A stretch of DNA of 39,518 nt from a virus. The stretch lies in UHGV virus genome UHGV-0040088. One strand, given 5' to 3'. The position numbers were made by a program, and so were the translations under genes. Every line of letters begins with the position of its first letter. Position 1 is the stretch's first letter. Below the pieces are notes generated by a model. It did not search any database, was not told the DNA's origin, and was given only the letters and a program-made list of their open reading frames with translations. Of this stretch, positions 17,937 to 39,518 are shown one piece after another.

Positions 17937-18461
17937 TTATGTGCCATGATTAACACCATAATATTTTTCTTCTAAAAACATCCTGTAAGCTACTGCATCA
18001 CCGAAATCGTCAAAGTATTTATTGCTTTTTCTTTTTCCGTTCACAGCTATATACACCCTCCACTGCTCCCTAGACTTGCACCACGATACACCACGAAAAC
18101 CGCTAGTATTGTTTGACTTTATTTTCCCACTCCTTACGAAATCAGCACAGTTATCAACCTGATAACCTATGTTAAGGTTTTCTATTCTATCATCACCCCT
18201 TACGTCGTTAATGTGCCTTATTACATGCTCATCAGGTATCGGGCCGTGATGCATTACCCATATAACTTGATGTCTATAGTAATTTCTCTTTTTATACGTG
18301 AATATGTAGTAACCGTTTTTATTCCTGGCGCCCACCGGACCCGGTTTTCTTCTTCCTCCATTTTCACATATTAAAGTTTTCCAATATATGTTCCCTTCAC
18401 TGTATATAAACAAGTCATTCCAGTTTATGCTATTGACCATGTCGTGATTTATTTGTGACAT
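17937..18461 (-). CDS. HNH homing endonuclease (HNH plus AP2-like)
   Basis: Motifs HQVIWVMHHGPIP, RHINDVRGDDRIENL, FRGVSW..QWR; AT-rich relative to flanking tail genes. Confidence 0.85.
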   Translation of the reverse strand: MSQINHDMVNSINWNDLFIYSEGNIYWKTLICENGGRRKPGPVGARNKNGYYIFTYKKRNYYRHQVIWVMHHGPIPDEHVIRHINDVRGDDRIENLNIGYQVDNCADFVRSGKIKSNNTSGFRGVSWCKSREQWRVYIAVNGKRKSNKYFDDFGDAVAYRMFLEEKYYGVNHGT

Positions 18462-22526: not shown

Positions 22527-25500
22527 ATGAGTAGCGGCGGCGGCAAAGCCAAAACACCAACACTATTGAACGATAACCTGTATCACAAACAGTTTTATCG
22601 TGTTTTAGATATTCTCAGCGAAGGGCCGATATACGGTCCGGTAAACCAGAAAGCGCCACTGAATGACGTGATGCTTAATGACACACCTGTTACTGACGCA
22701 AACGGGAATACATCAATCCCCGGGATTAGTGTAGCCTGGCGCAACGGCACGGCTGACCAGTCGCCGATTAATGGTTTTAATGCCATTGAGTCAACCGTTA
22801 TTGTCAACGCAAAGGTAACTCACGACACGCCAATAATCAGGACTGTTTCAGATCCAAACGTTACCCGCGTCAGGTTAAATCTTGGTGTTGACGCTCTCGT
22901 CCAGTCAGATGAAAAGGGCAATCAATACAATACATCCGTCATGTTGATGGTTGATGTTAAACCGTCATCTTCTTCTACGTGGTCGCTGATTAAAGATATA
23001 CACATTGGTCCCGGCAAACAAAGCGGTGAGTATCTGGAAGCCCACATCATTAAAGCACCGGATGAAAAACCGTTTGATATTCGCGTTCGTCGCGTGACAG
23101 CAGACAGCCACGGCGATCTATTGCGGAACGATACGCGGTGGAGCAGTTACAGCGAAATAATTGACGATAACCTGTCTTATCCCCATACCGCTGTAGCTGG
23201 CGCGGTAATTGACCACGATCAATATACTGATACGCCTACACGTACCTATCACCTTCGCGGCCTGATTGTTGATGTTCCTGATAACTACAACACAGAAACG
23301 CGCGCGTATTCTGGTTTATGGCTTGGCGGATTCAAAAAAGCGTACACCAATAACCCTGCGTGGATTTTCCGGTATCTGGTTAAAAACGAGCGCTTCGGGC
23401 TTGCTAAACATGCTGGTTACATTGATGTTGATGATGGCGCTTTGTACGTGCTCTCCCAATACTGCGATCAGTTGGTTGATGATGGCTATGGTGGCCTTGA
23501 ACCTCGCATGACGCTTAACGCTTACATTACGGAGCAAATGAGCGCCCGCGACCTACTGGATAACATTGCAGGTATGTTCCGTGGTATCGCGTTATGGGAC
23601 GGGCAACGCCTTACCGTGATGATTGATGCACCACAGGATCCAATTGCCACCATCACAAACGCAAACGTCGTTGATGGCGCGTTTACTCGCTCAAGTCTTC
23701 CGCTTGCAGAGTGTTACAACGCCGTGATCGTATCATGGACTGACCCGGAAAACGGCTGGGAGCAATCAAAAGAATACGTGGCAGATGATGAACTAATCGC
23801 CCGCGATGGTTATAACGAAACCACGTTGGAGGCGTTCGGGTGCACGTCACGCGGGCAAGCGTACCGCGCTGGTAAATGGCTGATAGAAACAGCAAAACGC
23901 GAGCCGTCTAAATTCACGTTTAAAATGGCCCGTGACGCAATTCACTTCACCCCTGGTGATATTATCGAGATACTCGACAATAACCGCGCTGGCGCTCGTT
24001 TAGGCGGTCGCATCGTGGCAAACAACGGCAGGGTTATCACTGTCGATAAGGTTGATTCTGAATATATCGCCCCCGGCGACACCATTAGCCTGCTTGATAG
24101 TGACGGCAAATTTAAAAAACACCAGATCACCGGAGTTAGCGGAAACAAAATTACCCTTGCATCTGCCCCGGCATGGATTCGTAACGGTACTGTGTTTGCC
24201 GTGTCAACTAACGCAGCAAAACCCGTATTGTGTCGAATCGTCAGCGTGGCGGAAACTGAAAATAACAGCGTGTACACCATAGAGGCTGCACAGCATGATC
24301 CGCACAAACAGGCTGTAGTAGATAATGGCGCAATCTTTGAGGTCAACAACGATACGCTTAATCACTTCCGCGTGCCAAACATTGAAAACCTGAAGGTGTT
24401 AAACATTGGATCTGAAACAGTTCAATGCCGCGCAACATGGGAAACACTGACGACAACTCATCGCCTGACCTTTGAAATCCGCGTATACAATTCAGCGGGG
24501 GCCGTAGTTAAAAGCTACGAAACTACTAATTACAGTTATGATTTTTATGGCATTGATGCGGGAACCTACTCATTAGGCATCCGTGGCAGAAATGACACGG
24601 GCATGAAGGGTGCTGAAAGCATTGTGGATCTGGTTATTGGTGCACCAGCGGCCCCGGTAGGAGTTAACTGGGTTCCCGGTGTATTTCAGGCTACAGTTTA
24701 CCCGATCAGCAGAACAACGCTTACCACTGACACCAGTTATGAGTTTTATTACTCAGGTGAAAAACAGATCACCGATCCGGCATCAGTAACCACTAAGGCA
24801 CAATATACCGGGCGTGGTCATCAGTGGACTTTTGGCGGCATGAACACGGGGCACACCTATTACGTTTATGTGCGCACACGCAATGCTTTTGGCGTGTCTG
24901 ACTTTGTGGAGGCATCAGGTAAGCCGACAGAGAATTTTGATGAAATCAGCGATTACGTCACCAAAGACGTGATGAACTCAGAACAGTTCAAGGAAATGAT
25001 TGGTGACATCAAAGATCTTGGTGATCGCACGGATGTTATTGAAAATGCCACAAATGAACTAAAAGCAGCTACCGACAACCTCAAAACTGCAACTGATAAT
25101 CTGACCAACATAACTGACGATTTAAGAACTGAAACCGACAACCTGACTAACATAACCGAAGATTTAAGAAATGATACTGACAACCTGATTACAGAAACAG
25201 GATCAATAAAAGCTGATACAGATACGCTAAAAAAAGAAACAGAAGATCTTTATAAAAAAGTTAAGGAAAACGCCGATGATATTGGTCAGCATGAGTCAAG
25301 AATTGATTCATTAGAAGTGTCCAGCGAAAAAGTTGGCAGCGAACTGGCGCAAGCAAAAGCAAGCCTGCAAAACGCGTCATTGGCGCTTATCAACAACTCG
25401 CTTGCACAGACAAACACGCGCGTTACCCTTACCGCCCAGTACAAAAAAGGCAGAACGGAAACGAAAGCGGAAATTGACCGTATTGACAACGTTATCGCTG

Positions 25501-28076
25501 AAGAGAAAAAAGCAACGGCTGAATCACTGAAAACCATCACGGCAGAAATGAACACGATGGATTCCAACCTTAAAGGTCAGATCTCCAGTGTGGAACGCGC
25601 AGTGGCTGACGAGGCTAGTGCCCGCGCTGAAGCTATTAACGGTGTGAACGCCTCAATAAGCAATCTCGACAAGAAAACGGATGCCAGCGTCAATAGGCTT
25701 GATCAGGCTATTGCAGATGAAACGAACGCCCGCACACAGGCGGTCAGTGACGTTAACGCAAGTATCTCGGTACTTGATAAGAAAACTGACGCCAGCGTTA
25801 AACGCCTGGATCAGGCAATCGCTGACGAAACCAGCGCAAGAACCGAAGCTATCAGTGGCGTGAACGCATCAATTTCAACGCTTGATAGCAAAGTGGAAAG
25901 CAATATAACGCGCATAGATAAAGCTATTGCAGATGAAACGCAGGCGCGTACAGACGCAATAAGCGGCGTCAAAGCGAGCATTAACACACTTGAAGGCAAC
26001 ACCAATTCAGAAGTTAAACGTCTGGATCAGGCAATCGCTGACGAGGCCAGTGCCCGCACACAGGCGGTAAGTGATGTAAAAGCATCAGTAAGCAACCTTG
26101 AAAGCAAAACTGACGCCAGCGTTAAACGCCTGGATAAAGCTATTGCAGACGAAACAAGCGCACGCAGCGAAGCTATTAGTGGGGTAAATGCCTCAGTATC
26201 AGCGCTCGACAAGAAAACCGATTCAAGCATAAGCCGCCTTGATAAAGCCATTGCGGATGAAACAAGCGCGAGAACCGAAGCCATCAACGGTGTGAATGCG
26301 TCAATTTCCACACTCGACGGCAAGGTTACAAGTAACGTTAGCCGCCTTGATAAAGCAATATCAGACGAAACGAAGGCAAGAAGCGACGCAATAACAGAGG
26401 TTAAAGCAGACTTAACAACGCTTGAGAACAGCACAAACGCCAGCGTTAAGCGTCTTGATCAGGCAATTGCCGATGAATCAAGCGCCCGCGCACAAGCAAT
26501 ATCAGGACTCAGCGCAAATCTTGGCACTGTTGAAAATAATGTTGGCAAAAACAGCGACGAAATAAATCAGGCAAAAGCAAGCCTGCAAAACGCATCTATT
26601 GCACTTATCAATAACTCAATCGCTCAAACCAACACGCGTGTTACTCTTTCAGCCCAATACAAGAAAGGAATCAGAGAAACCAACGCGAAAATTGACCGCA
26701 TTGACAATGTTGTAGCAGAAGAGAAAAAAGCAACGGCAGAAGCCATTAGCGGGGTAAGCGCATCGATCACCGATCTTGATAAGAAAACTGAAGCAAGCGT
26801 TAACCGCCTTGACAGGGCGATTGCAGACGAAACAAGCGCCCGCAGCGAGGCTATCAGCGGCGTGAATGCGTCAATTTCCACGCTTGATAGTAATGTGAAA
26901 AGCGACATTACCAGGATGGACAAAGCCATCGCCGATGAAACAAAAGCACGCGCAGACGCAATAAGCGGCCTTAGCGCATCGCTTACCAGTACGATCAACT
27001 CAAAAGTGTCTGAAGTGTCAACGGCACTTTCTACGCATGAGGAATCAAGTGCAGAAAAATTTAGCCAGATCTCGGCGTCTTTCGAATCAGTAAACTCAAG
27101 CATTACAGAATGGTCGCAGGCAATGGCTACAGCAGATAAGGCGTTGTCAACGAAAATTGATCAGCTAACAGTGACTGTTAACGGGAATAAGACGGCAATA
27201 GAGACGACATCTAAAGCGTTAACCGACTTTAAGGGTAATGTTGATGCGTCATATTCAATTAAGCTCGCCACCGACAACAACGGCATGAAATACGCAACAG
27301 GTATGTCACTTGGCCTTACTGGTGATGGGACCAACTTTCAGTCGCAGTGTATTTTCCTTGTTGACCGCTTCGTGTTAATGACTGACGCTAACGGTTCGTA
27401 TCAAACGCCTTTCTATGTAACTAATGGCGCAATGTATGTAAGAGAAGCGTTTATTAAAGACGGCACTATCAACTCCGCCAAAATAGCTGATCTAATACAG
27501 TCAGTTAATTATAGCTGGGAAGGCGCGACAGGATGGGCGATAAATAAAAACGGTAACGCAGTATTTAACCAAGTAACCGTAAGGGGGACGGTATACGCTA
27601 ATGCTGGTGTGTTTAACGGTACTGTTTACGCAACTGGCGGTAAATTTACTGGAGCAGTTGAAGCCACAAGTTTTGTTGGTGACGTAGCAAGTATGTCAGT
27701 GATAAACGAGAAAGTATTTCCGTCAATGAGGGGGAGCGGCAGCAGGGAAACTTCAAAAACTTATCTTGATTCAAGTTCATCAAGTTTATCAAAAACCGTT
27801 TACGTTATGATTCCGTATGATTTGTCATACTATACACATAGTGAATCTTCTCGTATCAGCGTAACTATAAACATAAACGGACACGCAAAAACAATTAATA
27901 TAGAAAGGCCAGCATCAGGTCCATCAATGTCATCTGTCGCGGTGCACTGTGTACATGACCTAACATACCCAACAATTACAGTCAAGGTTACGGAAAACTT
28001 TACCAATACATCCGCTGCATCAATAAGAAAACCAGGCTTGATACTTATAACAAGAAGTTCAGGAACATGGGTATAA
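22527..28076 (+). CDS. J: tail tip / host specificity protein J (lambda gpJ-like) with greatly expanded central coiled-coil repeat region
   Basis: N-terminal about 800 aa align block by block with lambda J as recalled (SEGPIYGP, YHLRG..YSG, YCDQ..GYGG..EPR, FGCTSRGQAYRAGKWL). 1849 aa versus about 1130 for lambda J. Confidence 0.9.
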   Translation: MSSGGGKAKTPTLLNDNLYHKQFYRVLDILSEGPIYGPVNQKAPLNDVMLNDTPVTDANGNTSIPGISVAWRNGTADQSPINGFNAIESTVIVNAKVTHDTPIIRTVSDPNVTRVRLNLGVDALVQSDEKGNQYNTSVMLMVDVKPSSSSTWSLIKDIHIGPGKQSGEYLEAHIIKAPDEKPFDIRVRRVTADSHGDLLRNDTRWSSYSEIIDDNLSYPHTAVAGAVIDHDQYTDTPTRTYHLRGLIVDVPDNYNTETRAYSGLWLGGFKKAYTNNPAWIFRYLVKNERFGLAKHAGYIDVDDGALYVLSQYCDQLVDDGYGGLEPRMTLNAYITEQMSARDLLDNIAGMFRGIALWDGQRLTVMIDAPQDPIATITNANVVDGAFTRSSLPLAECYNAVIVSWTDPENGWEQSKEYVADDELIARDGYNETTLEAFGCTSRGQAYRAGKWLIETAKREPSKFTFKMARDAIHFTPGDIIEILDNNRAGARLGGRIVANNGRVITVDKVDSEYIAPGDTISLLDSDGKFKKHQITGVSGNKITLASAPAWIRNGTVFAVSTNAAKPVLCRIVSVAETENNSVYTIEAAQHDPHKQAVVDNGAIFEVNNDTLNHFRVPNIENLKVLNIGSETVQCRATWETLTTTHRLTFEIRVYNSAGAVVKSYETTNYSYDFYGIDAGTYSLGIRGRNDTGMKGAESIVDLVIGAPAAPVGVNWVPGVFQATVYPISRTTLTTDTSYEFYYSGEKQITDPASVTTKAQYTGRGHQWTFGGMNTGHTYYVYVRTRNAFGVSDFVEASGKPTENFDEISDYVTKDVMNSEQFKEMIGDIKDLGDRTDVIENATNELKAATDNLKTATDNLTNITDDLRTETDNLTNITEDLRNDTDNLITETGSIKADTDTLKKETEDLYKKVKENADDIGQHESRIDSLEVSSEKVGSELAQAKASLQNASLALINNSLAQTNTRVTLTAQYKKGRTETKAEIDRIDNVIAEEKKATAESLKTITAEMNTMDSNLKGQISSVERAVADEASARAEAINGVNASISNLDKKTDASVNRLDQAIADETNARTQAVSDVNASISVLDKKTDASVKRLDQAIADETSARTEAISGVNASISTLDSKVESNITRIDKAIADETQARTDAISGVKASINTLEGNTNSEVKRLDQAIADEASARTQAVSDVKASVSNLESKTDASVKRLDKAIADETSARSEAISGVNASVSALDKKTDSSISRLDKAIADETSARTEAINGVNASISTLDGKVTSNVSRLDKAISDETKARSDAITEVKADLTTLENSTNASVKRLDQAIADESSARAQAISGLSANLGTVENNVGKNSDEINQAKASLQNASIALINNSIAQTNTRVTLSAQYKKGIRETNAKIDRIDNVVAEEKKATAEAISGVSASITDLDKKTEASVNRLDRAIADETSARSEAISGVNASISTLDSNVKSDITRMDKAIADETKARADAISGLSASLTSTINSKVSEVSTALSTHEESSAEKFSQISASFESVNSSITEWSQAMATADKALSTKIDQLTVTVNGNKTAIETTSKALTDFKGNVDASYSIKLATDNNGMKYATGMSLGLTGDGTNFQSQCIFLVDRFVLMTDANGSYQTPFYVTNGAMYVREAFIKDGTINSAKIADLIQSVNYSWEGATGWAINKNGNAVFNQVTVRGTVYANAGVFNGTVYATGGKFTGAVEATSFVGDVASMSVINEKVFPSMRGSGSRETSKTYLDSSSSSLSKTVYVMIPYDLSYYTHSESSRISVTININGHAKTINIERPASGPSMSSVAVHCVHDLTYPTITVKVTENFTNTSAASIRKPGLILITRSSGTWV
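25581..27010 (+). repeat. in-frame tandem repeats (36 aa / 108 bp, about 12 copies) inside J
   Basis: Repeated unit approximately V(K/N)RLDxAIADETxARxxAIsGVNASISxLDxKTDAS; the array is split by a second copy of a block (AKASLQNAS..IDRIDNV..EEKKATAE) at about 25358 and 26570. Confidence 0.85.
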
Positions 28077-28533: not shown

Positions 28534-31500
28534 ATGATTTACACAACTGGAACAGTTGCCATTAACGGCAATACTGTTAAAGGCACGGGAACAAACTTTT
28601 CCGCGCCGCTTTCTCTTATTCGTGTAGGTTGCACGCTCATTGCTGTTGGCAATCCTGTGCAGATCTTTACCATCACGGAAATTAAAAGCGGCACTGAACT
28701 GTTAGTGACGCCAGCAGCTAACCCCGCAATCCCTGCCGGGACAAAATTTAGCATCCTGCTATCTGATTCGATCTCAGTTGATGGGCTTGCTCAGGACGTA
28801 GCTGAAACCCTGCGTTACTACCAGAGCAAAGAAACAGAAATCGCCTCCGCCGTAGAGTGGTGGAATGAGATCGGCGGCGAAGGTCAGTTGGATCAGCTTC
28901 TTACCAACATTCGCGCAGAAACAGCCAAATCAACCGCTAACGCTCAAAAAACAGAAACTGACAAAAACGCAGCAGAAGCGTCAAAAACAGCGGCTGCAAA
29001 ATCCGCCACGGCAGCGAAAACATCAGAAACCAACGCTAAGGCAAGCGAGACGGCAGCGAAAACAAGCGAAACCAAAGCCAAAACATCAGAGGACAGGGCG
29101 CAAGAATATCTGAATCAAATGGGAAGGCTTACCAGCCCAATGGTCCAATGTGCTTGGCCTGTTGAAACTAGCGGTAATGGCGCTTACGTTAAGATTGCTA
29201 AACTTAGCGATCCAAAGTCATCAGACTGCCACTTAACGCTAATGGTTACAAATGGCGGTGGCTACGGTTTAAGTTACGGGAATATTGACTTTATAGAGAT
29301 CTCCGCTCGAGGTCTTAACGACACAGGCGAAGTAACCAGTGAAAATATATCTAAATTTTTAAGTATTCGCCGACTCGGTTCACCAAACCTTCCCAATAAT
29401 AGTCAAATGTGTTACGGCCTGGTTAAAGGTGACGGCTATATCGAGGTCTGGTGCTACCAGCGATCTTATATTAAAAACACAAAAGTAGCGGTGCTGGCGC
29501 AGACTGGCAACACGGAATTATACATTCCTGAAGGATTTGTTAAGCAAGCCGACGCACCCGCTGGATATATTGAAAGCCCAGCAGCAAGGATTTACGACCA
29601 GGTAAACAAACCCAGCAAGGCAGATCTGGGCCTTTCTAATGCTATGCTTACAGGCGCTTTCGGTCTTGGCGGTAGCGGGATATCAACAACCGGCAAGATG
29701 AGCGATGTAGAGATCTTAAAAGCTCTGCGTGACAAAGGTGGTCATTTCTGGCGCAGTGATAGGCCGACCGGAAGTACGGCGACCATTTATAGCCGCGGTT
29801 CTGGTATATTCTCGCGGTGCGGCGATACGTGGTCGGCGATCAATATCGACTACGGAACAGGTAAAGTCAAGGTTTACGCTGGTAACGATGGTGGACTTAA
29901 TAGTGGTAATTTTTCCGTCAATGAGCTATACGGAACCAAAAATAAACCGTCGAAATCGGACGTTGGACTTGACAACGTAACCAACGATGCACAGGTTAAA
30001 AAATCCGGCGACACCATGACTGGCGACCTGTCGATCACTAAAGCAACACCTTCGATATACATTCGTTCAAAAAGTGGAACCGCCCATGTATGGTTCCAGA
30101 ATGAGGATCAATCGGAACGCGGTGTTATCTGGGCGCCTACCAATTCCGAAGGACTTGGCGAAGTTCACATCAGGGCCAAAAATACAAAAGGTGAATCAAC
30201 TGGTGAACTCATTGTTCGTCACGACGGGGAAATTAGGGTTCCCAGTCTCACAGCGAGTAAAAAAATAAAAGGCGCAACCGCAGATTTTACAAACACATCA
30301 GAAACCACGACGGAGAACACGTTAAAAATCAGCGGTAAGCAGCATACACCGTTAGTTTTAACGCGTACCGGGTATTCTGAAAACCTGTCCATTGGCTTCA
30401 AGGTTGATAACGTTGTTCAAAAATACCTCGGTATTAATAGCGGTGGGGATCTGTGTTTTGGTGATTATGCCGATCACAAAACAAACAGCAAAGTTATCAC
30501 GCAAGCAGTGCTTGATAGCGGTGTGACGGTAGGCGGTCAGACAACCTTTTCTAAACTTGCCACATTTAGCAAAGGCATGACCGGGCCTATCGTACCGGAA
30601 GGGCTTGACTCACGTACCATTGATCTTAATGACCTAATCATCAATGGTTCAGATATAGGATCGGTCAAATACTATCAATGTACATCTTCCAGTGGTGGAG
30701 CGAACATTACCAACAAGCCTGACGGCGTAGGCGGTAACTTCTTGCTGCGTGTAGAGTCAGTCCGTAAAGTTAGTGATACTGACTATATAAGTATGCAAAC
30801 ACTGACTAGTGGCGACAAAGAACGCGTATTTGTTCGTTTTAATACTAATAGTAAGTGGACAGCATGGTGTGAACCTGTTGTATCGGGATGGAAGCAGGAT
30901 GTGTCTGTTAAGACGCTAACAGCAGCCGAAGACGTCATCCTTAAAAACAGTGATACTGGTCCGCGCCTTATTTTAAGGAACTCTAACACATCGGCGCAGT
31001 CGTGGAGTGTAAGGGTGTGGGGTGAAAGCGGAAGGGAAAGCGTTTTTGAGGTTGGTAACAGCAATAGTTACATGTTCTATGCTCAGGAAGATGCAGCAGG
31101 AAACAAGAAATTTGACTTTAACGGTGATATTTCATGTAAGACGCTATATCAAACTTCTGACCAGAGCCTTAAAGACAACATTAAGGTTATAGGTGACGCC
31201 ACCGAATCCATCCGCAAAATGAATGGGTACACCTACACGTTTAAGGACGATGGCCTGCCTTACGCTGGCGTTATTGCACAGGAAGTAATGGACGCGCTGC
31301 CTGAAGCGATAGCGTTTACCACTCTTTGCGGCAAGGAGCTACAAGGACCAACAACTGACGGCAACATCTTACGCGAGGAAATGAAGTGCCTCAGCGTTGA
31401 CTATGCGGCGGTGACTGGTTTACTTGTCCAGGTGGCACGCGAAACGGATAACCGCGTCACCGAACTGGAAGAGGAGAACGCAAGCCTGAAAGCTAACATT

Positions 31501-31569
31501 GCCGCAATGGATGAGCGGATAGCAAAACTTGAAGCGCTTATCAGTCAGTTGACCGGAAGCGAAGAATAA
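28534..31569 (+). CDS. side tail fiber protein (Stf-like N-terminus) with C-terminal intramolecular chaperone (peptidase S74-like) domain
   Basis: N-terminal KTSETNAK-type Ala/Lys/Thr/Ser repeats as in lambdoid Stf fibers; C-terminus SDQSLKDNIKVIG...NGYTYTF... then a coiled coil, as in self-cleaving chaperone domains. Confidence 0.85.
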   Translation: MIYTTGTVAINGNTVKGTGTNFSAPLSLIRVGCTLIAVGNPVQIFTITEIKSGTELLVTPAANPAIPAGTKFSILLSDSISVDGLAQDVAETLRYYQSKETEIASAVEWWNEIGGEGQLDQLLTNIRAETAKSTANAQKTETDKNAAEASKTAAAKSATAAKTSETNAKASETAAKTSETKAKTSEDRAQEYLNQMGRLTSPMVQCAWPVETSGNGAYVKIAKLSDPKSSDCHLTLMVTNGGGYGLSYGNIDFIEISARGLNDTGEVTSENISKFLSIRRLGSPNLPNNSQMCYGLVKGDGYIEVWCYQRSYIKNTKVAVLAQTGNTELYIPEGFVKQADAPAGYIESPAARIYDQVNKPSKADLGLSNAMLTGAFGLGGSGISTTGKMSDVEILKALRDKGGHFWRSDRPTGSTATIYSRGSGIFSRCGDTWSAINIDYGTGKVKVYAGNDGGLNSGNFSVNELYGTKNKPSKSDVGLDNVTNDAQVKKSGDTMTGDLSITKATPSIYIRSKSGTAHVWFQNEDQSERGVIWAPTNSEGLGEVHIRAKNTKGESTGELIVRHDGEIRVPSLTASKKIKGATADFTNTSETTTENTLKISGKQHTPLVLTRTGYSENLSIGFKVDNVVQKYLGINSGGDLCFGDYADHKTNSKVITQAVLDSGVTVGGQTTFSKLATFSKGMTGPIVPEGLDSRTIDLNDLIINGSDIGSVKYYQCTSSSGGANITNKPDGVGGNFLLRVESVRKVSDTDYISMQTLTSGDKERVFVRFNTNSKWTAWCEPVVSGWKQDVSVKTLTAAEDVILKNSDTGPRLILRNSNTSAQSWSVRVWGESGRESVFEVGNSNSYMFYAQEDAAGNKKFDFNGDISCKTLYQTSDQSLKDNIKVIGDATESIRKMNGYTYTFKDDGLPYAGVIAQEVMDALPEAIAFTTLCGKELQGPTTDGNILREEMKCLSVDYAAVTGLLVQVARETDNRVTELEEENASLKANIAAMDERIAKLEALISQLTGSEE

Positions 31570-31598
31570 GAGGTGATGTGCGAAGAACATCGCCGCGC

Positions 31599-31628
31599 GA
31601 AACGAGGCTAACGCCTCGTTTCTTTTTA
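31599..31628. terminator. terminator between tail fiber gene and convergent minus-strand early operon
   Basis: 10-bp stem gaaacgaggc/gcctcgtttc, loop taac, then TTTTTAT. Confidence 0.65.
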
Positions 31629-31773
31629 TGTACCAAATAGTGACCAAATACCCAAAACCAAAAACAAAAGCACTGTAACATACTGTTTTATAAATTATTA
31701 TTCACAAAGCTAACCATTCCAAGCATACGGCAGATGGCAGGGCGACCAAGAAGAATTGTTGTCGTTTTATCCA

Positions 31774-32436
31774 TTATCTTTTCCCCGTGTATTCAACGTG
31801 TCCGATACATCCATCAATAATAGCTTGCGCCATATTGCGATAATCGCACGAAAAATCATTGTCACGGCTAAAGTCAATCTCGCTTGCCGCATCTTCACCC
31901 ATTACCTTAGTGGCAAGTGCGAACGCTATTTCAGCGAGCGCCTTTTCTTTCGGGTCAATGTGAATGCGGTAAGAGTATTTCTTCCATGCTACAGTTGTTT
32001 CCGTTTCTGATACTAATTTACTGTGAGCGATAGCCCAATTATCACCGAGATATAAAAACTTAACGACATCGATAACCGTTCCGCTCGTAAGTCCTACACA
32101 ATCAAGCCACACACCAACCGGAGGCTTTTCACATGCCAGCCATTCCGTTTTTTCAGGTTGTGTTTCGCAATCATGGTGCTCATCTTCGATTAATTCATCA
32201 ATAATTTCACTTTCTTTATTCATACCGTCATCATCCTTATTCGATAAATTGGCGTATTTATCAAATTTCCAGCTTGCAGCCATAACCGAATAAGTGCCGC
32301 CAGTGTCAGCGCGAACACCCAATAAATAGTATGATCCAAAATTATATTCCGTGTGGCATGTTGTTACCTCAAACGATGGGTAACACTCAGGGTTGGCGCG
32401 ATGGCTAATCACGCCAATTGCTTTAAGTTTATTCAT
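31774..32436 (-). CDS. hypothetical protein (220 aa), last gene of the minus-strand operon
   Basis: ORF in track; acidic central region; no recognisable motif. Confidence 0.55.
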   Translation of the reverse strand: MNKLKAIGVISHRANPECYPSFEVTTCHTEYNFGSYYLLGVRADTGGTYSVMAASWKFDKYANLSNKDDDGMNKESEIIDELIEDEHHDCETQPEKTEWLACEKPPVGVWLDCVGLTSGTVIDVVKFLYLGDNWAIAHSKLVSETETTVAWKKYSYRIHIDPKEKALAEIAFALATKVMGEDAASEIDFSRDNDFSCDYRNMAQAIIDGCIGHVEYTGKR

Positions 32437-32450
32437 TTGCTTATCCTCAA

Positions 32451-32627
32451 TTACGCCACAGTTACATTGTCAACTTTGATAAAATATTCAGGATGGTTTT
32501 CTATTTCGTGCTGAAAGTGCGCGTGGCACAATCGCCAATCACGCGCCTGGTTGTGAAAATAGTAAACATATTCGCCATCAATCTTATATAAAATTCCTGT
32601 AGGTTTAGCCATGTAGTAACGAACCAT
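32451..32627 (-). CDS. hypothetical small protein (58 aa)
   Basis: TAATG stop/start overlap with NinB; the track start at 32681 would overlap NinB by 55 nt. Confidence 0.4.
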   Translation of the reverse strand: MVRYYMAKPTGILYKIDGEYVYYFHNQARDWRLCHAHFQHEIENHPEYFIKVDNVTVA

Positions 32628-33058
32628 TATCGCCCCCAGCGTTTTATAAATTCCTCGTTTAACTTCGTATCGCCAGACCACTGAACACCATGTTCCGCGC
32701 CGAACGAGTAGATCAGTTCGATTAATTCGCTAAATTCTGCTTTACTCATCCGGCTGGTTGACGTACCCAGCACAACAAAACCTGATTTATCCAGGTTAGG
32801 GACAACGCCATATTTCTTAAGCCCGGCAGTAAATACCGCTTTCCAGTCTTCCGACGACAGCTTTTTGCCGTACCAATTAACCTGATCGCTAACGTCTGTC
32901 AGCAGCGCCCAAAGCAACGCGTTTTGACTCAGCGAGCGGGTTTTCTCCTTGATGGTAATTACCAGCGGGCTTTTGCTATCAGGCTGGATCTCCTTTATCT
33001 GTCTGATAGCGTTTTCTTTTACGGCGTCGTTAACTATTTCAAACCTTATTTGCCGCAT
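32627..33058 (-). CDS. ninB: recombination protein NinB (lambda Orf family)
   Basis: Block similarity to lambda NinB as recalled: RSLSQNALLWALLTDVSDQVNWYGKKL / RSLDQNRKLWACLGDVSRQVEWHGRWL; VVPNLDKSGFVVLGTSTSRM / VVPNLAGNGFVVIGQSTSRM. Confidence 0.85.
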   Translation of the reverse strand: MRQIRFEIVNDAVKENAIRQIKEIQPDSKSPLVITIKEKTRSLSQNALLWALLTDVSDQVNWYGKKLSSEDWKAVFTAGLKKYGVVPNLDKSGFVVLGTSTSRMSKAEFSELIELIYSFGAEHGVQWSGDTKLNEEFIKRWGR

Positions 33059-33067
33059 AATATCAAC

Positions 33068-33628
33068 TCAAAACAATTGCAATTGAAAACGTTCGCTGAC
33101 TTCTTTCATTAACTGCTTAACATGTTTCTTATCACGCTTTCGCTGAGTTAACAGGCGGCTTCCAACCTTGCCGACCGTTTCGCTATCAGTAGCAAAACTG
33201 CTTACTGCATTCATTACCTGTTCACAGCTTGCGCCGCAACAAATAAGACCCTTAACGTGTTCAGCCATGTCATCATGTGTTTTAGGTTTTTCTCCGTAAT
33301 AGCCATTATGACGAATAGATGGCAATACTTCCTCAAACACCCAATCCTGGAAGCGTTCGGCTGATTCAAGTTTTGAATGCATAATCAAGCGGAAAACATC
33401 CGGTTCGTAAATCAGGCCAACTCCTTTCGGCTTGAATCCGAATCCTAATTCTCGCGTTTTGCGAGAATCAAGTTTAATCAATGATTTACAGTGTTTTTTA
33501 ATAGCATCATGCTCGTTCTTATAACCTAACGCGCGAGCAACATTAACAGCAACAAAAGCTGGCTTATCTGCATAAATAACCGTTTGCACTTGTTTATCAT
33601 CAAACGAGAATTTAACAACCTTATTCAT
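33068..33628 (-). CDS. Bro-N domain protein (antirepressor-like), paralog 1
   Basis: N-terminal roughly 105 aa are about 75 percent identical to 37744..38481; typical Bro-N pattern (KPAFVAVNVARALGY); unrelated C-terminus. Confidence 0.8.
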   Translation of the reverse strand: MNKVVKFSFDDKQVQTVIYADKPAFVAVNVARALGYKNEHDAIKKHCKSLIKLDSRKTRELGFGFKPKGVGLIYEPDVFRLIMHSKLESAERFQDWVFEEVLPSIRHNGYYGEKPKTHDDMAEHVKGLICCGASCEQVMNAVSSFATDSETVGKVGSRLLTQRKRDKKHVKQLMKEVSERFQLQLF

Positions 33629-33818
33629 GTTTTACCCCTTTATAACTTTCGTTTCGCGCCTTCATAATCATTTGAAGGCTGATTAATTTAGAAGAAGTCA
33701 TAAAAGCGCTTTTTAAGTACCTCATATCAACAACAACAGGATTATCAGGATCGCCGCCGCGCATGTATTCCGCAATTGTGCTTAAGTCTTCAACTGTCAA
33801 TTCCAATTCACTGTTCAT
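33621..33818 (-). CDS. hypothetical small protein (65 aa)
   Basis: AAGGGGG SD before the internal ATG; the longer track ORF lacks an RBS. Confidence 0.35.
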   Translation of the reverse strand: MNSELELTVEDLSTIAEYMRGGDPDNPVVVDMRYLKSAFMTSSKLISLQMIMKARNESYKGVKHE

Positions 33819-33828
33819 GATCGCCCCC

Positions 33829-34035
33829 TTACACAATCCGCATTGTGTTTCGTAATTCTCCGCGCAACGCCCGTAATGCATCGCGCATCGGCACGAAAAC
33901 CCGGTTAAATTTTACGTGTTTATATTTCCGCATTAGTGGCGGCGTATACACCATTGCGTCGTATACTTCCCACGGATAATAAACACGCGTATCGTCAACA
34001 AACGTTTCAACTGAATAAAAAATTACACGCCTCAT
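33829..34035 (-). CDS. hypothetical small protein (68 aa)
   Basis: ORF in track within the tightly packed operon; weak SD. Confidence 0.3.
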   Translation of the reverse strand: MRRVIFYSVETFVDDTRVYYPWEVYDAMVYTPPLMRKYKHVKFNRVFVPMRDALRALRGELRNTMRIV

Positions 34036-34049
34036 AGTTCCAACCCCGT

Positions 34050-34559
34050 TTAACCGTTAAGTTTTTCAATCTCAAATACTGGTTTATCAGGCAGTAGGCC
34101 GTTATCTTTACGGTATTCGTTTAATAAGTTACTAAAATTAAATGCGACAACATTTGAATAACCATAAAAACGCGCGTTTCTGAAAAAATATTTACCGTCA
34201 AACTTATTAACAGTTAGTAGGTTCTCACTTCCTAACATCCGCAATATTCTGCCGACCTTTCCTTTGTTTATATTAATATTCAATTCATTCTTAACATCTT
34301 CCGCTGAAAAATACCCGCTACTATTTGAAAACAAAGGGATTATATCCCTTATCGCCATTTCCCTTACTGACTTCAAGCAATATGATAATCTTTTACTATT
34401 TAGATCTACTTTTATAATAACGCCATCAGAAACCAAAGCATCCAAAGCGCAAATTATTTCACCTTCCGGTCCAGGAATAGATTTAACTATCGTTCCCTCA
34501 CCTGAAATAACAGCGTCATTTAAAAAATCAATTATTTGTTGCTGGTATGAAGTTTTCAT
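34050..34559 (-). CDS. hypothetical protein (169 aa), AT-rich, possibly two winged-helix-like segments
   Basis: GAGG SD before ATG 34559; visibly AT-richer than flanking genes; segment KGKVGRILRMLGSENLLTV resembles a recognition helix. Confidence 0.5.
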   Translation of the reverse strand: MKTSYQQQIIDFLNDAVISGEGTIVKSIPGPEGEIICALDALVSDGVIIKVDLNSKRLSYCLKSVREMAIRDIIPLFSNSSGYFSAEDVKNELNININKGKVGRILRMLGSENLLTVNKFDGKYFFRNARFYGYSNVVAFNFSNLLNEYRKDNGLLPDKPVFEIEKLNG

Positions 34560-34635
34560 TTTTAGCCTCGTTTTAAACGCGAAAACAGCCACCAGAAAGC
34601 GGTAAACTTTCCGGCAAGCTGTTTGCTAATATTGA

Positions 34636-36051
34636 TTAAAAAGATGCGTTATTCTGATTGTTTCGTTGGTTAAATCGGCTTGCGCGATGATTCATAGACT
34701 GAATACATGCAGACGCTGCGCGGGCCTGGTCACAAGGGAGGATATTGCCGTTGTCATCAAACCGCTGGTAAACAGTACCAGTTTTCCCGTGACGGTTTTT
34801 AGATACAATTATTTCCATGTATTCGCGTGCTACAGACTGCTCATCGTAATAACCATCGCGGTAAACCATGATGATCCTGTCAGCGTCTTGCTCAAGGTTC
34901 CCTGAATCTCGAAGATCTGAATTATTAGGGCGCTTGTTAGGTCGTTCCTCAACGCGGCGGGATAACTGGGCCAGCGCCAACACTGGTACGCGCAATTCTT
35001 TCGCCATCATCTTCAACGACCATGACAATTGCCCTACAGCGAGATCGTGACGTTCGGCTTTAGCCAGCTTCATTAAACCGATGTAGTCAATCATTACCAT
35101 GCCCAGGTTTGGGTGATCCTGCTTCATGCGTTCCGTTGTTGCGCGTATTTCCTCAACCGTTAACTGCGACGCGTCAACGATCCACACCTCAAGATTAGCA
35201 AGTGCGCTCATACCCTGGCCGACATGCGCCCAACCCTCATCATCAAGTTTTACCGGATTGCGCAGGCAGTCAGTTGATAAATTACCAGCGCCAGCAATGG
35301 CCCGTTCAGTCATCTGATCGAGTGACATTTCAAGCGTAAACAGCAAAACGCCTACCCGCTGACCTTCGCCACCAGGGTAAGGGCGCTCGGCAGCCTCGCG
35401 AGCAATTGCAAGCGCCAACGCAGATTTACCAGACCCAGGACGTCCGGCGAGAAGTACCAAATCAGTAGCGTTAATTCCGCCTAACATTTCGTCGAGTGGT
35501 TCTATACCTGTTTTGATGTTGTCAGAATTGACACCGCATTCCATGCGCTTGCTTAAAACGTCCGTATACTCCTGTACCGCATCACGCAACAGAACCGGAA
35601 TGATCTTGTCTTTCGTTACCTTTAATTTTGAATACCGGGAATCAAAATCTTTCATCGTCTCTTTGACGACTTCAAGCGTCCCCGTTTCCAGCTTGTAGCG
35701 CATATCGTCGATGAGTTCCAACATCTGCCGCCGCTGGTGCTCTTCACGTAGTAGCTGTGCGTATCCCTTCAGGTTGGCAGCAGAAGGACACGATCGCGCC
35801 GTTTGCATTAGCGGTACAAAGTTTTCATTGCCAATCTCATCGCCAACTAATAACGCGTCGATAAGATTCCTGTTTCTGGCTTGCGCCCGGATAACTTCAA
35901 ACGCACGTTTATAAAGCGGGATCGTGAACACTTCAGGATCAAGTGTGGCGAGAACATCTTGCGCGTTAGGAGTAAGGCCACCTAACAGTAGCCCGCCGAT
36001 AACTGACGCTTCACGTTCCTGCCGTAGTGAGTTTATTTGCTCAGTTACCAT
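34636..36051 (-). CDS. replicative DNA helicase (DnaB family)
   Basis: 471 aa; Walker A GRPGSGKSALAL; DnaB-like N-terminal domain and RecA-like core. Confidence 0.9.
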   Translation of the reverse strand: MVTEQINSLRQEREASVIGGLLLGGLTPNAQDVLATLDPEVFTIPLYKRAFEVIRAQARNRNLIDALLVGDEIGNENFVPLMQTARSCPSAANLKGYAQLLREEHQRRQMLELIDDMRYKLETGTLEVVKETMKDFDSRYSKLKVTKDKIIPVLLRDAVQEYTDVLSKRMECGVNSDNIKTGIEPLDEMLGGINATDLVLLAGRPGSGKSALALAIAREAAERPYPGGEGQRVGVLLFTLEMSLDQMTERAIAGAGNLSTDCLRNPVKLDDEGWAHVGQGMSALANLEVWIVDASQLTVEEIRATTERMKQDHPNLGMVMIDYIGLMKLAKAERHDLAVGQLSWSLKMMAKELRVPVLALAQLSRRVEERPNKRPNNSDLRDSGNLEQDADRIIMVYRDGYYDEQSVAREYMEIIVSKNRHGKTGTVYQRFDDNGNILPCDQARAASACIQSMNHRASRFNQRNNQNNASF

Positions 36052-36085
36052 TATGTTATTGCCTCCGGTTTACAAAATGGAAAAT

Positions 36086-36592
36086 TCAGGGTAAAGAAAT
36101 ACCGTGATTGCTATGAAAGTTATACATTCTTTCAGCTTCTTTTCTTGCTTTTACGGCATCATCAAATGAGTCACCGTAATAAACGTATATTGTTTTCTTT
36201 TTCCCATCAGACCCCCTTATACCTATTTGCGCGCGCCATTTATTAGTTTTCTTGTTCCATGTAACGCCAACGCATCCGCTGGTGTTACTTGATGGTATTG
36301 TTTTATTTCTGTTGTTCTCCCTCCTTGTAACCATCCTTAAGTTTTCGATTCTATCATCGCCAGGCACATGATTTATGTGATCTATTTCCATTCCATCAGG
36401 GATAGGGCCGTTAAACATTTCCCAAATAATGCGGTGACGCCATGTACAACACACACCATTAACGCGGATAGTCCAATATCCGCTATGATGCCTACTTCCA
36501 GCAACGTCACCGGCTTTTGTTTTGTTATTTGCGCGGTTACAAGACCAATATAGAACACCGTCCCTATAGGTAAATAAATCATCCCACATCAT
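36086..36592 (-). CDS. HNH homing endonuclease (HNH plus AP2-like)
   Basis: Motifs HRIIWEMFNGPIP, DHINHVPGDDRIENL, CVGVTW..KWR; start at internal ATG 36592/36589; third paralog in the window. Confidence 0.8.
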   Translation of the reverse strand: MMWDDLFTYRDGVLYWSCNRANNKTKAGDVAGSRHHSGYWTIRVNGVCCTWRHRIIWEMFNGPIPDGMEIDHINHVPGDDRIENLRMVTRRENNRNKTIPSSNTSGCVGVTWNKKTNKWRAQIGIRGSDGKKKTIYVYYGDSFDDAVKARKEAERMYNFHSNHGISLP

Positions 36593-37709
36593 GACACACC
36601 ACCATTTCAGGCCTATATACAAAGCGACCAATTTCGCCATAATCAGGACTGTAAATGATAACCGCCGCGCAACGTTGCGATCTCCATCCTCCATTAGTTG
36701 AATAAGCGTCTTTGCCCGCTAACGTGCCGTGGTGTTCAACTATGCCTATAGATGATTCTGTTACTGATTTATGGTGCAAATGTCCGACATGGACGTAAAC
36801 ATATTTCGACTTGCCGAAATCCTCGCGCCAGTCAGCTACGCAAGCAGCCAATAAATTTTCCGGCTTTTTAATAGTGTGCCCGTGGTGGTAAGCAAGAAAT
36901 GTTTTACCGTACTGCGTGTGGTGGACGATAGCAGGTGACACATCAACCGTCACGCGCGGTTCATCTTCGTAAAAAGCCGCCAGCGCCGCACGTAGCCAAA
37001 TCATGCCTGACTGATCGTGATTGCCTGACAACACCTGGATTTCAACATCCTTATGATTTAACAACATTTTACCTACCGCCCGCCGGACAGACCGGATCGC
37101 CACATAAACAAGTTTTGCGTAGCGACTATCTTGATCAAGAATGTGCCCGCTTATTGGCGTCACCGGGACCATACCGTCAGAATGAAGCAGATCGCCACCG
37201 AGGAGCAGTACGGCTTTTTCAGACATCGGAGCAGCGCCAACAGCGTAGTCAAAGAAGTCATTCAACACGCGCTCAGCGATCCCAGTGTCGTAGCTCTCGC
37301 CGCATTCAGCTTTATGAGCAAGCGCCCCGATATGCAGATCAAACACCGGATAAAGGGCCAGGCTTTTTTGAAAATCAATTTCAGGCACTGGCACAGCCTC
37401 CGCGCGTGGTATTTCATCCGTGAAAGCGTCGCGGGCCGCTTCCATTAACTGTTCCATTTCGTCGCGGTCACGGGCTGTTTTAATCCAGCGCATGATCACA
37501 TTGCCATCCTTATCGACGAGCAATGACTCAGCATTGACGCCAAAACCCGGTGCGCGACGCGTGGATATTAAACCGCGTTTCGCCAGTTTTGCGCCTAGCC
37601 GCTCGACGTTGCGTTTTGACATGCCATATTTTTCAGCGATCTGCTTGTACGTTAAACCGTTGTTATATTCAGCGATCAATTGCTCATCGCTGATTTTTCT
37701 TTGTGACAT
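36579..37709 (-). CDS. HTH domain fused to calcineurin-like metallophosphoesterase
   Basis: N-terminal HTH (LTYKQIAEKYGMSKRNVERL); phosphoesterase motifs DLH, GGDLLH, GNHD, GHLHH in canonical order. Confidence 0.75.
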   Translation of the reverse strand: MSQRKISDEQLIAEYNNGLTYKQIAEKYGMSKRNVERLGAKLAKRGLISTRRAPGFGVNAESLLVDKDGNVIMRWIKTARDRDEMEQLMEAARDAFTDEIPRAEAVPVPEIDFQKSLALYPVFDLHIGALAHKAECGESYDTGIAERVLNDFFDYAVGAAPMSEKAVLLLGGDLLHSDGMVPVTPISGHILDQDSRYAKLVYVAIRSVRRAVGKMLLNHKDVEIQVLSGNHDQSGMIWLRAALAAFYEDEPRVTVDVSPAIVHHTQYGKTFLAYHHGHTIKKPENLLAACVADWREDFGKSKYVYVHVGHLHHKSVTESSIGIVEHHGTLAGKDAYSTNGGWRSQRCAAVIIYSPDYGEIGRFVYRPEMVVCHDVG

Positions 37710-37743
37710 AGTGTCATTTCCTCACGAATAACAAATTGTATAC

Positions 37744-38481
37744 TTAGTTGCAAGTTAAAAGCTCAGTGATCCATACTTGTCCTTTAGCAGTGAATACAGC
37801 CTGCTCATATCCATCGTGAGTTACCCTCATTTCACCGTAGCCCTCATCAATAAACCACTGACTGAATACACGGCGGCGACAGCGAAGATCATAAACACCA
37901 ACCGCCGAAAGTTTTCTGTTTAATTTTACGGCTGACATTCCCAGCGGTTTAGCTACCTCTGAAGCCGTTCGGTGCATATCGTTTTTGACTATCGCGTCAC
38001 ATACAGCCGCTTTCGGAGCCAGCACTTTATTTTCAAGCGCAAGACGTTCATTTTCTTGCTTAACTAACAATTTTTGCTCGTATTCATTAGCCCACGCCCG
38101 CGCCGCTTCCGCAGGGTTAGAGAAGTCAGGCAAAGCAGGTTTGCAACCGTAACACCCATTTTCACGCAAAGCCGGAAGAACCTCCTCGCACACCCAATCC
38201 TGGAAGCGCTCGGCTGATTCTAATTTTGATCTCATAACAAGACGGTATATATCTGCCTCTCGAATTATAATTATGCCTTTTGGTCTGAACCCAAAACCTA
38301 ATTCCGTTGTTTTAACGGAATCAAGTTTAATCAATGACTTACAATGTTTTTTAATGGCCTGATGCTCGTCGTTGTACCCCAGCGCACGGGCCACATCAAC
38401 CGCAACAAAAGCAGGTTTACCGTCATAAATTACAGCAGTGATTTTATTGTCATCAAAATTAAAACACATCAACTCAGACAT
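37744..38481 (-). CDS. Bro-N / KilA-C antirepressor-like protein, paralog 2
   Basis: Bro-N N-terminus (KPAFVAVDVARALGY) and ANT/KilAC-like C-terminus; GGAGA SD before ATG 38481. Confidence 0.8.
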   Translation of the reverse strand: MSELMCFNFDDNKITAVIYDGKPAFVAVDVARALGYNDEHQAIKKHCKSLIKLDSVKTTELGFGFRPKGIIIIREADIYRLVMRSKLESAERFQDWVCEEVLPALRENGCYGCKPALPDFSNPAEAARAWANEYEQKLLVKQENERLALENKVLAPKAAVCDAIVKNDMHRTASEVAKPLGMSAVKLNRKLSAVGVYDLRCRRRVFSQWFIDEGYGEMRVTHDGYEQAVFTAKGQVWITELLTCN

Positions 38482-38729
38482 TGTAATTTCTCCGTAAAAC
38501 GCTCTACAACGCAAAAATCCCACCGCGTAACCCGTTTGCACAGGTTGCAGTGTCTTATTGCGCCAGAGGCGCTATCAGGTGGCTAATTTTCGATTTACAG
38601 ACTGGTATGTAGGTTATGGATTGATTAGCAGGTACAAACCGCCGAACAAAGCGACGTTAACAGCGATTGCAGCAGCGATGGCAAAGGCCAGGGCGAAAAC
38701 GTGTTTACCGTCCATTTTTTAAATCCTCT

Positions 38730-39368
38730 CTAAAACGAATTATTAGAAACGAATTTTCTGTATGGCTTAGGTAACGAAGGAGTGTTGCCGCCAAATAACA
38801 ACCTTATCGCATTAACAGAAAACTCAACATACATAAACGGTTCACCATCAGCATGATAGCCAACCTGTTGGCGAGCAAGCCCGCGAAGCGCCATAGACGG
38901 CGTAACAATCCAGCCATTATCAACCTTTTGAACCATGCCCAGCTTTGCAGCAGCCTTATAAACTTCACCAGACTTTCCAGGCAAGATTTTCCCTGGAGTA
39001 AGGAATACACCCTCAAGCATGTTGATCAGGCAATCATTTTCCTTGCGTAACTGCGCTGCCTCTTTCTCTCTTTCGATGAAGTAGTCACGAACCGCGCGCC
39101 CCTTAGGTGTGTGCTGGATCATCGCAATGTGTTTTGCTGCCTCAACAGTCAGAAAATATTCAGATGCTGGGCGGCCTCCATCCAGGTTATGAACATTTTT
39201 GTTCAAAACCTCAAAATCCAAAGACTTACGCAACCCGCACGCCTTTATCTGACGCTTTATCCACATGTGATAAGGAGTTTTAACACCCATTGCCTCATGT
39301 AACTGGCGACCGTCAACAGCCTCGCGCGTAACGCCGTCCATATCCTTAACAACAATATCGAACTTCAT
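38730..39368 (-). CDS. phage regulatory protein Rha-like (putative antirepressor)
   Basis: N-terminal segment VDGRQLHEAMGVKTPYHMWIKRQI matches the Rha-family pattern; GAGAGGA SD. Confidence 0.65.
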   Translation of the reverse strand: MKFDIVVKDMDGVTREAVDGRQLHEAMGVKTPYHMWIKRQIKACGLRKSLDFEVLNKNVHNLDGGRPASEYFLTVEAAKHIAMIQHTPKGRAVRDYFIEREKEAAQLRKENDCLINMLEGVFLTPGKILPGKSGEVYKAAAKLGMVQKVDNGWIVTPSMALRGLARQQVGYHADGEPFMYVEFSVNAIRLLFGGNTPSLPKPYRKFVSNNSF

Positions 39369-39518
39369 TTCAAAATCCTCTCTAAAACGCTCTCTAACGA
39401 GCTAAACCGCTAAAGATATGCAATCGTAGCACCATGCGTGTTTTAGCTCGCTGGTGAGCTTGTTTTGTGGGTAATTTTTGATTTTTGCTGATCGTGGTTG
39501 GTCAAAGAGCGCCACATC

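Follow-up and report, generated by a model that had tools for sequence, protein, structure and literature searches.

The shuffling of domains within the Bro/KilA-N family of DNA viruses and phages was reportedly described by Iyer, Koonin and Aravind in 2002. For bro families, loss, duplication and horizontal transfer by recombination have been described (PMC3230853). A related combinatorial system is formed by the AriS-like/Ant-type regulators, such as AriS of Listeria phi10403S, Lin2418 of L. innocua, Gp07 of S. aureus phi11 and Ant1/Ant2 of P1. The KilAC domain of the AriS-like proteins inhibits the SOS response and is joined to an N-terminal domain that alternates between AntA, Bro-N and pRha, the KilAC-dependent inhibition having been established for the Listeria proteins only (PMC9043618). 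At a finer scale, Rad52-like mosaicism (De Paepe et al. 2014) leaves short intragenic patches between diverged sequences; patches of ~100 bp within genes are common, and orf (NinB family) contributes to the mosaicism (PMC3945230). Finally, the mEpimmI group of Nus-dependent, non-lambdoid temperate phages was described in 2025, and a KilAC-like antirepressor is among the proteins on which two mEpimmI phage comparisons disagreed (PMC11893012).

Here we analyse the 39,518-nt virus genome UHGV-0040088 (the window), in which two minus-strand genes, 33068-33628 and 37744-38481, have a homologous in-frame 5′ part of ~345 nt in direct orientation. The genes occupy two variable positions, slot A and slot B, respectively, and the homologous part encodes a Bro-N domain. 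The slot-B gene has the same Bro-N + ANT/KilAC composition as the AriS-like/Ant-type proteins, and the Bro-N/pRha alternation on KilAC seen by Azulay et al. (PMC9043618) recurs at this slot, the suggested likeness being one of domain architecture. The differences are that the slot-B gene belongs to the early-left operon for replication in a coliphage that is Nus-dependent and non-lambdoid, and that the slot-A gene is devoid of KilAC altogether. As in the Bro/KilA-N families (baculovirus bro), the same conserved N-terminal DNA-binding-type domain is found on unrelated C-termini, and there are likewise several copies per genome with a copy number that varies between close relatives. Unlike that shuffling, exchange here occurs below the domain level, in patches of ~120-240 nt inside Bro-N, has breakpoints at the gene start and the linker, and links a temperate group of siphoviruses with a lineage of virulent myoviruses. 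The patches resemble those of De Paepe et al. 2014, and genes for Erf, SSB and NinB/Orf occur in the phage family; the exchanges here, however, are ectopic (between paralogues at different positions) rather than allelic, and would presumably depend on such a recombinase. The window has the same early-left gene order as the mEpimmI phages mEp021, mEp010, mEp013, mEp044, mEp515 and mEp554 at 86-91% nt identity. It differs from them in having no integrase, in retaining 22 codons of a xis-like gene and in an additional AntA gene, and it carries a Bro-N gene at slot A, where mEp021 and mEp515 have a methyltransferase or methyltransferase-like gene. It is already established that phage antirepressor-type genes include pairs of Bro-N paralogues that differ in their tails, as well as KilAC parts with alternating N-domains; the window adds a further case, from a coliphage group described only recently, and matters little as such. 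The interest of the locus lies in direct repeats that have diverged, lie on either side of essential replication genes and are tolerated without deletion or homogenization in two unrelated phage lineages, and in a well-resolved case of ectopic patch exchange below the domain level that fits the relaxed homologous-recombination model of phage mosaicism.

Geometry and age of the repeat

The sequence-only reading had placed a diverged direct repeat at 33313-33628 and 38166-38481, i.e. the first 105 codons of the two leftward genes, and both an in-window repeat search and tblastn agree with these coordinates. The independent repeat search returned 33284-33583 versus 38137-38436 (300 nt, 72% identical, spacing 4,853), and only one other dispersed repeat pair of the window, a 174-nt pair inside the tail gene, is of comparable length. 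With copy B as the tblastn query, a match is obtained at 33628-33272 (68%), and exactly two Bro-N copies are found in the whole window. The starts of the two minus-strand copies lie 4,853 bp from each other, in agreement with direct repeats 4.9 kb apart. The slot-A and slot-B proteins share 81/119 identical residues (68%, BLASTP, E = 2e-60) in an ungapped alignment that ends at approximately residue 119, and over the first 105 residues the identity is 73/105 = 69.5%, lower than the value of about 75% put forward at first sight. At the nucleotide level, the ungapped in-frame alignment of the two copies is 70% identical over 345 nt, compared with a mean of 27.6% (sd 2.4, max 35%) in codon-shuffled controls; the repeat is real and far beyond chance. 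Long matching nucleotide runs had also been described, and matching runs do exist, but the longest exact run is 20 nt (33465-33484/38318-38337) and the next is 19 nt (33337-33355/38190-38208). The identity at third codon positions is ~50% (range 44-57%), and NG86 estimates give a dN of 0.24 and a dS of 1.63, with segment values of dS ranging from 1.0 to 4.0 and saturation in the central segment (dS about 4). The saturated dS and the ~50% third-position identity indicate an old repeat that is apparently upheld by protein-level constraint. The 30-nt identity between the copies reaches a maximum of 0.87, and together with the saturated synonymous sites this implies no recent exchange between them. 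The features of the locus are collected in Table 1.

Table 1. Features of the early-left region of the window and of the two variable slots.
Feature	Position	Strand	Family or remark
NinB/Orf recombination mediator, directly downstream of slot A	32627..33058	-	PF05772, 161 bits
Slot-A gene, C-terminal 68 residues, three predicted helices	33068..33271	-	without known family
Copy A: codons 1-119 of slot-A gene, Bro-N domain	33272..33628	-	PF02498
Slot A	between o86 and NinB		empty in most of 58 loci
Whole interval between copies	33621..37709	-	order kept in related loci spanning the interval
o86, interval gene	33621-33881	-	
o68, interval gene	33829-34035	-	
o180, interval gene, AT-rich (34% GC)	34050-34592	-	
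DnaB helicase, interval gene	34636-36051	-	
HNH endonuclease, interval gene	36086-36694	-	start uncertain
HTH + metallophosphoesterase/exonuclease-like protein, interval gene	36579-37709	-	
Slot B	between replication gene and phosphoesterase gene		contents vary across 58 loci
Linker + KilAC (ANT) domain of slot-B gene	37744..38124	-	PF03374
Copy B: codons 1-119 of slot-B gene, Bro-N domain	38125..38481	-	PF02498
33-aa strongly hydrophobic ORF (MDGKHVFALAFAIAAAIAVNVALFGGLYLLINP), between AntA and slot-B genes	38614..38715	-	own Shine-Dalgarno
AntA-domain protein, third antirepressor-type gene, slot-B region	38730..39368	-	PF08346, 71 bits

Domain content of the two genes

Both proteins are Bro-N members, with scores against PF02498 of 73.0 bits for the slot-A protein (186 aa) and 78.1 bits for the slot-B protein (245 aa) at a gathering cutoff of 25.6, and both matches span profile positions 1-96 or 2-96 of 96. 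The slot-B protein also matches PF03374 over residues 150-243 (42.7 bits, cutoff 25.3), and by its sequence has the architecture of an AriS/Ant-type two-domain regulator. Its gene is taken to start at the ATG at 38481 and not at the GTG at 38541, as P0023 and other homologues begin with MSELM and a GGAG lies upstream. The slot-A protein, in contrast, has no ANT/KilAC (PF03374) match and is therefore not an AriS-like/Ant-type member; its tail gives no Pfam or PHROG match beyond residue ~125, and the C-termini are, as had been recognized, unrelated. The putative antirepressor or regulator role of both proteins is borrowed from the names of their families. The slot-A tail is nonetheless 85-90% conserved in the orthologues L007, L008 and L056-L060, of which L008 encodes the closest relative of the whole protein (91% identity). 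An IMG/VR scan with the slot-A protein gave no additional A-type genes in mEpimmI phages; the genes obtained were all of the A2 type, on contigs of ~120 kb.

An AF2 model of Bro-N (residues 1-108, pLDDT 81-90) consists of three strands, three short helices, one strand and two longer helices, and the tail helices at 118-130, 135-154 and 160-181 are low-confidence predictions. A phmmer search of the PDB gave no match for the Bro-N protein. Foldseek against the PDB gave weak matches to the DdrC N-domain, the SKI/Dachshund DHD, the CpGV Orf22 N-domain and the Mbp1 APSES domain, with TM scores on the target of 0.42-0.64 and none with E below 1e-3; the modelled fold is compatible with a winged-helix/APSES relationship.

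The N-terminal domain on the conserved KilAC part alternates between Bro-N and pRha among related phages. Five E. coli prophages have a slot-B gene that is without Bro-N and matches the window over the KilAC part at 90.5% nt identity, and one of these (L005) retains the first seven codons (MSDLMVF) and the linker around a different N-domain, which places the breakpoints of the swap after codon 7 and within the linker. The slot-B genes of L057 and L058 encode 246-aa pRha + ANT proteins. Such comparisons show genuine whole-domain swapping at slot B, in which KilAC is the constant part. The identical starts are seen directly in L004 and L005, where a Bro-N and a pRha-type gene both begin with MSDLMVF. 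Domain shuffling by 'Bro-N-mediated' recombination had been proposed from the sequence; shuffling as such is borne out by these swaps and by the internal mosaicism described below, but the attribute is a misnomer, as the Bro-N domain is not a recombinase and any exchange is ordinary homology-driven recombination acting on DNA.

Two variable slots in a conserved operon

The early-left region is 86-91% nt identical to mEp515, mEp010, mEp021 and MagusPhagus and to E. coli prophages, the latter in 35 of 5,426 complete E. coli genomes. With an 8-kb query, each of the six mEp phages and MagusPhagus aligns over 54-73% of the query length at 86-91% identity, and the gene order matches that of mEp021-type genomes; on these grounds the window is assigned to a coliphage of the temperate mEpimmI (mEp021-like) group. 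For comparison 58 loci were assembled, consisting of the window, 9 annotated or metagenomic loci, 43 from IMG/VR found via the helicase and 5 found via the slot-A protein. Because the set combines IMG/VR, Logan and RefSeq loci without de-replication, the counts given here are not independent. The backbone (Lin1244-type replication gene, phosphoesterase-like gene, an optional HNH gene, DnaB, o180, o68, o86, NinB) is colinear in every locus that spans it. Between the copies, in the direction of transcription, the order is the HTH + phosphoesterase/exonuclease-like gene, HNH, DnaB and three small ORFs, and the open reading frames and domain matches are as expected from the earlier description of phosphoesterase, HNH, helicase and AT-rich genes flanked by the repeat.

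A comparison of Bro gene content across the 58 related loci resolves two slots with variable contents. Slot A holds a methyltransferase in three loci (L001, L002 and L018) and the Bro-A gene in eight (the window, L007, L008 and L056-L060), five of these eight having been found through Bro-A itself. At slot B, KilAC is joined to Bro-N in 11 loci and to another N-domain in a further 11, and 18 loci have a zinc-ribbon protein; none of the three is detected in 17 loci, and in one (L008) the slot is cut off. The window is the only locus (1/58) with both Bro-N genes, the L008 contig starting inside the phosphoesterase gene with slot B beyond its end. Full-length orthologues of each gene occur at 83-88% nt identity in genomes without the other, and because each is found without the other the slot-A and slot-B Bro genes assort independently. 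The replication module itself is 88-99% identical among relatives.

Different cargo genes of slot A have common first codons: the Bro-A gene (start at 33609-33628) and the methyltransferase gene of mEp021 (L002) share ATGAATAA.G.TGTTA.ATT (MNKV/MNKD), and the left recombination breakpoint of the cargo genes seems to lie just inside the ORF. Truncated or frameshifted homologues of both Bro genes are present in the databases (P0014, P0022, P0026 and P0042; 137, 129, 163 and 182 aa), and a premature stop is found in the Bro gene at 8001-8531 of L062, a virulent myovirus described below. These truncations fit the decay of dispensable accessory genes.

Mosaic tracts inside Bro-N

Different segments of the Bro-N coding sequence cluster differently. 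Nucleotides 1-75 and 226-345 cluster by slot, with 84-97% identity within a slot and about 60-72% between slots, whereas nucleotides 76-225 cluster across slots: L007 slot A is 79% identical to mEp515 slot B compared with 69% to the slot A of the window. Maximum chi-square analysis (max-chi2) places the breakpoints at nt 81-109 and 202-234, and the value observed for each of the four cassette-type triplets exceeds those of all 300 permutations. A fifth triplet, comparing copy A of the window with its same-cassette orthologue L008, is weaker (17/300); with a 30-nt identity of at most 0.87 and a saturated central dS, recent conversion between the window copies was rejected. L007 slot A and L012 slot B are 87% identical over nt 61-225 and 53% and 71% in the flanks. 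The dS of this tract is 0.75, indicating that conversion tracts between A and B are not very recent. Another sharp case is the pair L010 (A2 type) and L011 (C type), in which the identity of 30-nt windows is 87-100% over nt 60-300 and 37-67% in the flanks. The breakpoints coincide with nucleotide blocks encoding KPAF, HCKSLI and ERFQDWV that are conserved even at third positions.

Across 61 close homologues, the first 22 residues go with the C-terminal type in nearly every case, the one exception being shortened at its 5′ end, and no hybrid of a B-type leader and an A-type tail was found among those classified. The central part behaves differently: five cassette types are resolved, of which the two commonest occur with all three C-terminal groups and a third with two, the recurring copies being sometimes nearly identical in protein. 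In protein terms, the central cassettes of copies A and B are of the same type. According to max-chi2 (0/300 permutations), the central patch of Bro-N (about nt 80-225) has a history separate from that of its flanks, and it is common to different gene types, to both slots and to a virulent myovirus lineage. A third-party donor, rather than direct A-to-B exchange, could lie behind the slot A/B tracts. The AF2 model positions the mosaic tract over helices a1-a3 and the following loop.

The virulent lineage (L062, L010, L011 and L061) is Vequintavirinae-like, with a ligase 72% nt identical to the phiWec191/PDX-type. It has two Bro slots of its own, which in L062 are at 3483-4298 and 8001-8531, ~4.5 kb apart around the DNA ligase. 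At one slot of the lineage, Bro-N and pRha alternate on a common C-terminal domain; at the other, a 190-aa Bro gene is present or absent, and its tail is distantly related (37%) to the slot-A tail of the window. The two copies in L062 stand at 65% identity with the interval between them intact.

Origin and activity of the repeat pair

We consider it most likely that the window carries old paralogous regulator genes that are held independently of each other, with a domain kept by selection and patches swapped by homology-driven recombination. The repeat would then be the Bro-N part of two accessory genes that are paralogues of ancient divergence; each would fill a variable cargo slot of its own in the early-left (replication/recombination) operon and would have been acquired or retained independently of the other. 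The similarity would be upheld by purifying selection on the Bro-N fold and not by recent duplication. Over evolutionary time, Bro-N sequences of this subfamily would swap entire domains as well as short internal stretches, either in co-infections or with prophages, the exchange being anchored on the KPAF, HCKSLI and ERFQDWV blocks, the gene start and the inter-domain linker. Likely agents would be the components of a relaxed-fidelity phage system, i.e. Erf/SSB in relatives and NinB in the window. NinB is encoded in the window and ERF and SSB genes in relatives; no ERF gene lies inside the window, and its presence in this phage would be expected from the relatives. Since a crossover between the direct copies would delete the DnaB helicase module, presumably with lethal effect, only non-crossover patches would survive, and only such products are seen.

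The sequence-only reading had seen in the two copies a pair that could promote deletion or exchange of the replication module. Active substrates of this kind, whether deleting the module or serving as portable homology arms for swapping it, would be in the same orientation, and the copies are indeed direct, 4,853 bp apart, in a phage family with relaxed-fidelity recombination functions and with demonstrated past recombination of Bro-N sequences. Their uninterrupted identity is nonetheless low. The minimal efficient processing segment for RecA is reportedly roughly 23-27 bp (Shen and Huang 1986), longer than the 20-nt longest run found here. Erf-type recombinases work on 78%-identical substrates, the lowest identity at which Erf/Red have been shown to act (PMC3945230), and with 70% identity and exact runs of no more than 20 and 19 nt the copies are poor substrates even for these enzymes. 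No related locus spanning the interval is without it among the 58, and the helicase is retained in 35 of 35 E. coli prophage matches. A deletion would take out DnaB and other family-conserved genes, and the 88-99% identity of the module between relatives would permit its exchange without Bro-N arms. Both arms are present in only one of the 58 loci, and L062, the second two-copy genome, keeps its copies at 65% with the interval intact. We therefore regard recombination between this pair as a very unlikely source of deletion or module exchange: the low identity, the short runs, the lack of a recent tract and the retained interval all oppose it. Still less credible is a recent duplication within the genome followed by fusion to different C-termini. 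The common strand and operon, and the fact that each copy is the closest Bro-N relative of the other outside its own orthologues, are in its favour, but a dS of 1.63 with third-position identity of ~50%, orthologues of each gene at 83-88% nt identity in genomes without the other, and the same two architectures plus two more in an unrelated virulent myovirus lineage are not. Recent segmental duplication was rejected on the dS and on the single occurrence of orthologues. Concerted evolution of co-resident copies is likewise not seen in the two two-copy genomes (the window and L062, 65-70% identity), a number too small for statistics.

A further proposal, compatible with the independently held paralogues favoured here, concerns the central patch (about residues 27-73, helices a1-a3), which might be a specificity cassette kept polymorphic by selection on targets. 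The five cassette types, with the two commonest in all three C-terminal groups and a third in two, agree with this idea, as does the dN between types of 0.29-0.41 compared with 0.00-0.10 in the flanks, and the tract would cover the helix-rich core of a modelled winged-helix/APSES-like fold. However, pairwise dN/dS between types is below 1 (about 0.2-0.5), conversion patches are expected in the middle of a homology block regardless of function, and the structural matches to this fold are all weak, with E values never below 1e-3; we consider the proposal rather improbable. Positive selection on the cassette was rejected, pairwise dN/dS being <1. Extended to all Bro-N genes of enterobacterial phages, the same idea would describe a gene-conversion network in which a ~45-residue cassette (a1-a3) acts as the target-specificity determinant and is kept polymorphic by selection; we put this forward tentatively, as a reading with a small share of the probability. 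The cassette would move from one C-terminal effector or slot to another, and also between temperate phages (mEpimmI) and virulent ones (Vequintavirinae-like), with three short nucleotide blocks, in which even synonymous sites are conserved, as the anchors of these moves. Were this so, Bro-N would be a naturally 're-programmable' recognition module, and a cassette that sets target specificity would offer a handle on the function of the domain.

Other features of the early-left region and beyond

The AntA gene has no match in the other 57 loci of the family and constitutes extra cargo seen only in the window. On either side of it lies one copy of a 22-nt direct repeat of the ribosome-binding region CGTTTTAGAGAGGATTT (38716-38737 and 39368-39389, 91% identical), and a third, related copy precedes the slot-B gene (38485-38511). 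The slot-A methyltransferase of mEp021 is likewise bracketed, by a duplicated ATGAGGCAA (NinB start). To judge from these repeats, the AntA cargo looks like an insertion by recombination at a conserved translation-initiation sequence. The hydrophobic 33-aa ORF may encode a small membrane peptide, and ORFs of 33 aa/102 nt at the equivalent position in mEp515, L009, L056 and L057 are matched to it by length and position alone. A scan of 31400-39518 revealed 5 promoter-like sites (16 expected) and 8 terminator-like sites (8.4 expected), with no mark at either Bro gene, and the idea that these genes are autonomous 'morons' was set aside.

The integrase gene is missing between the tail-fibre gene (ending at 31569) and the early-left operon (window 31570-31774), and of the xis/AlpA-like gene only the first 22 codons are present (31709-31774, 82% to mEp021_02). 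A 1.2-kb int gene is found at the equivalent site in mEp021, MagusPhagus and E. coli prophages. Because the metagenomic loci L057 and L058 have the int-less junction seen in the window, a non-integrating sub-lineage seems to exist.

The HNH gene of the interval is present or absent among related loci, as expected of a free-standing homing endonuclease. A second HNH paralogue in the late region (17937-18461) shares with it an 89-nt stretch of 71% identity. The L008 contig has extra HNH genes after NinB and next to the tail gene, and its DnaB gene (1468-3933) encodes 821 aa, to which the window helicase matches in two parts (residues 1-210 and 210-471) ~1 kb apart; this arrangement suggests a helicase gene split by an intein or an inserted mobile ORF. 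The tail gene of the window (1,849 aa, 22527-28076) contains seven diverged 269-nt units at 25350-26969, mostly at 108-nt spacing and 60-73% identical, and the same segment also holds the 174-nt repeat pair, which is 81% identical.
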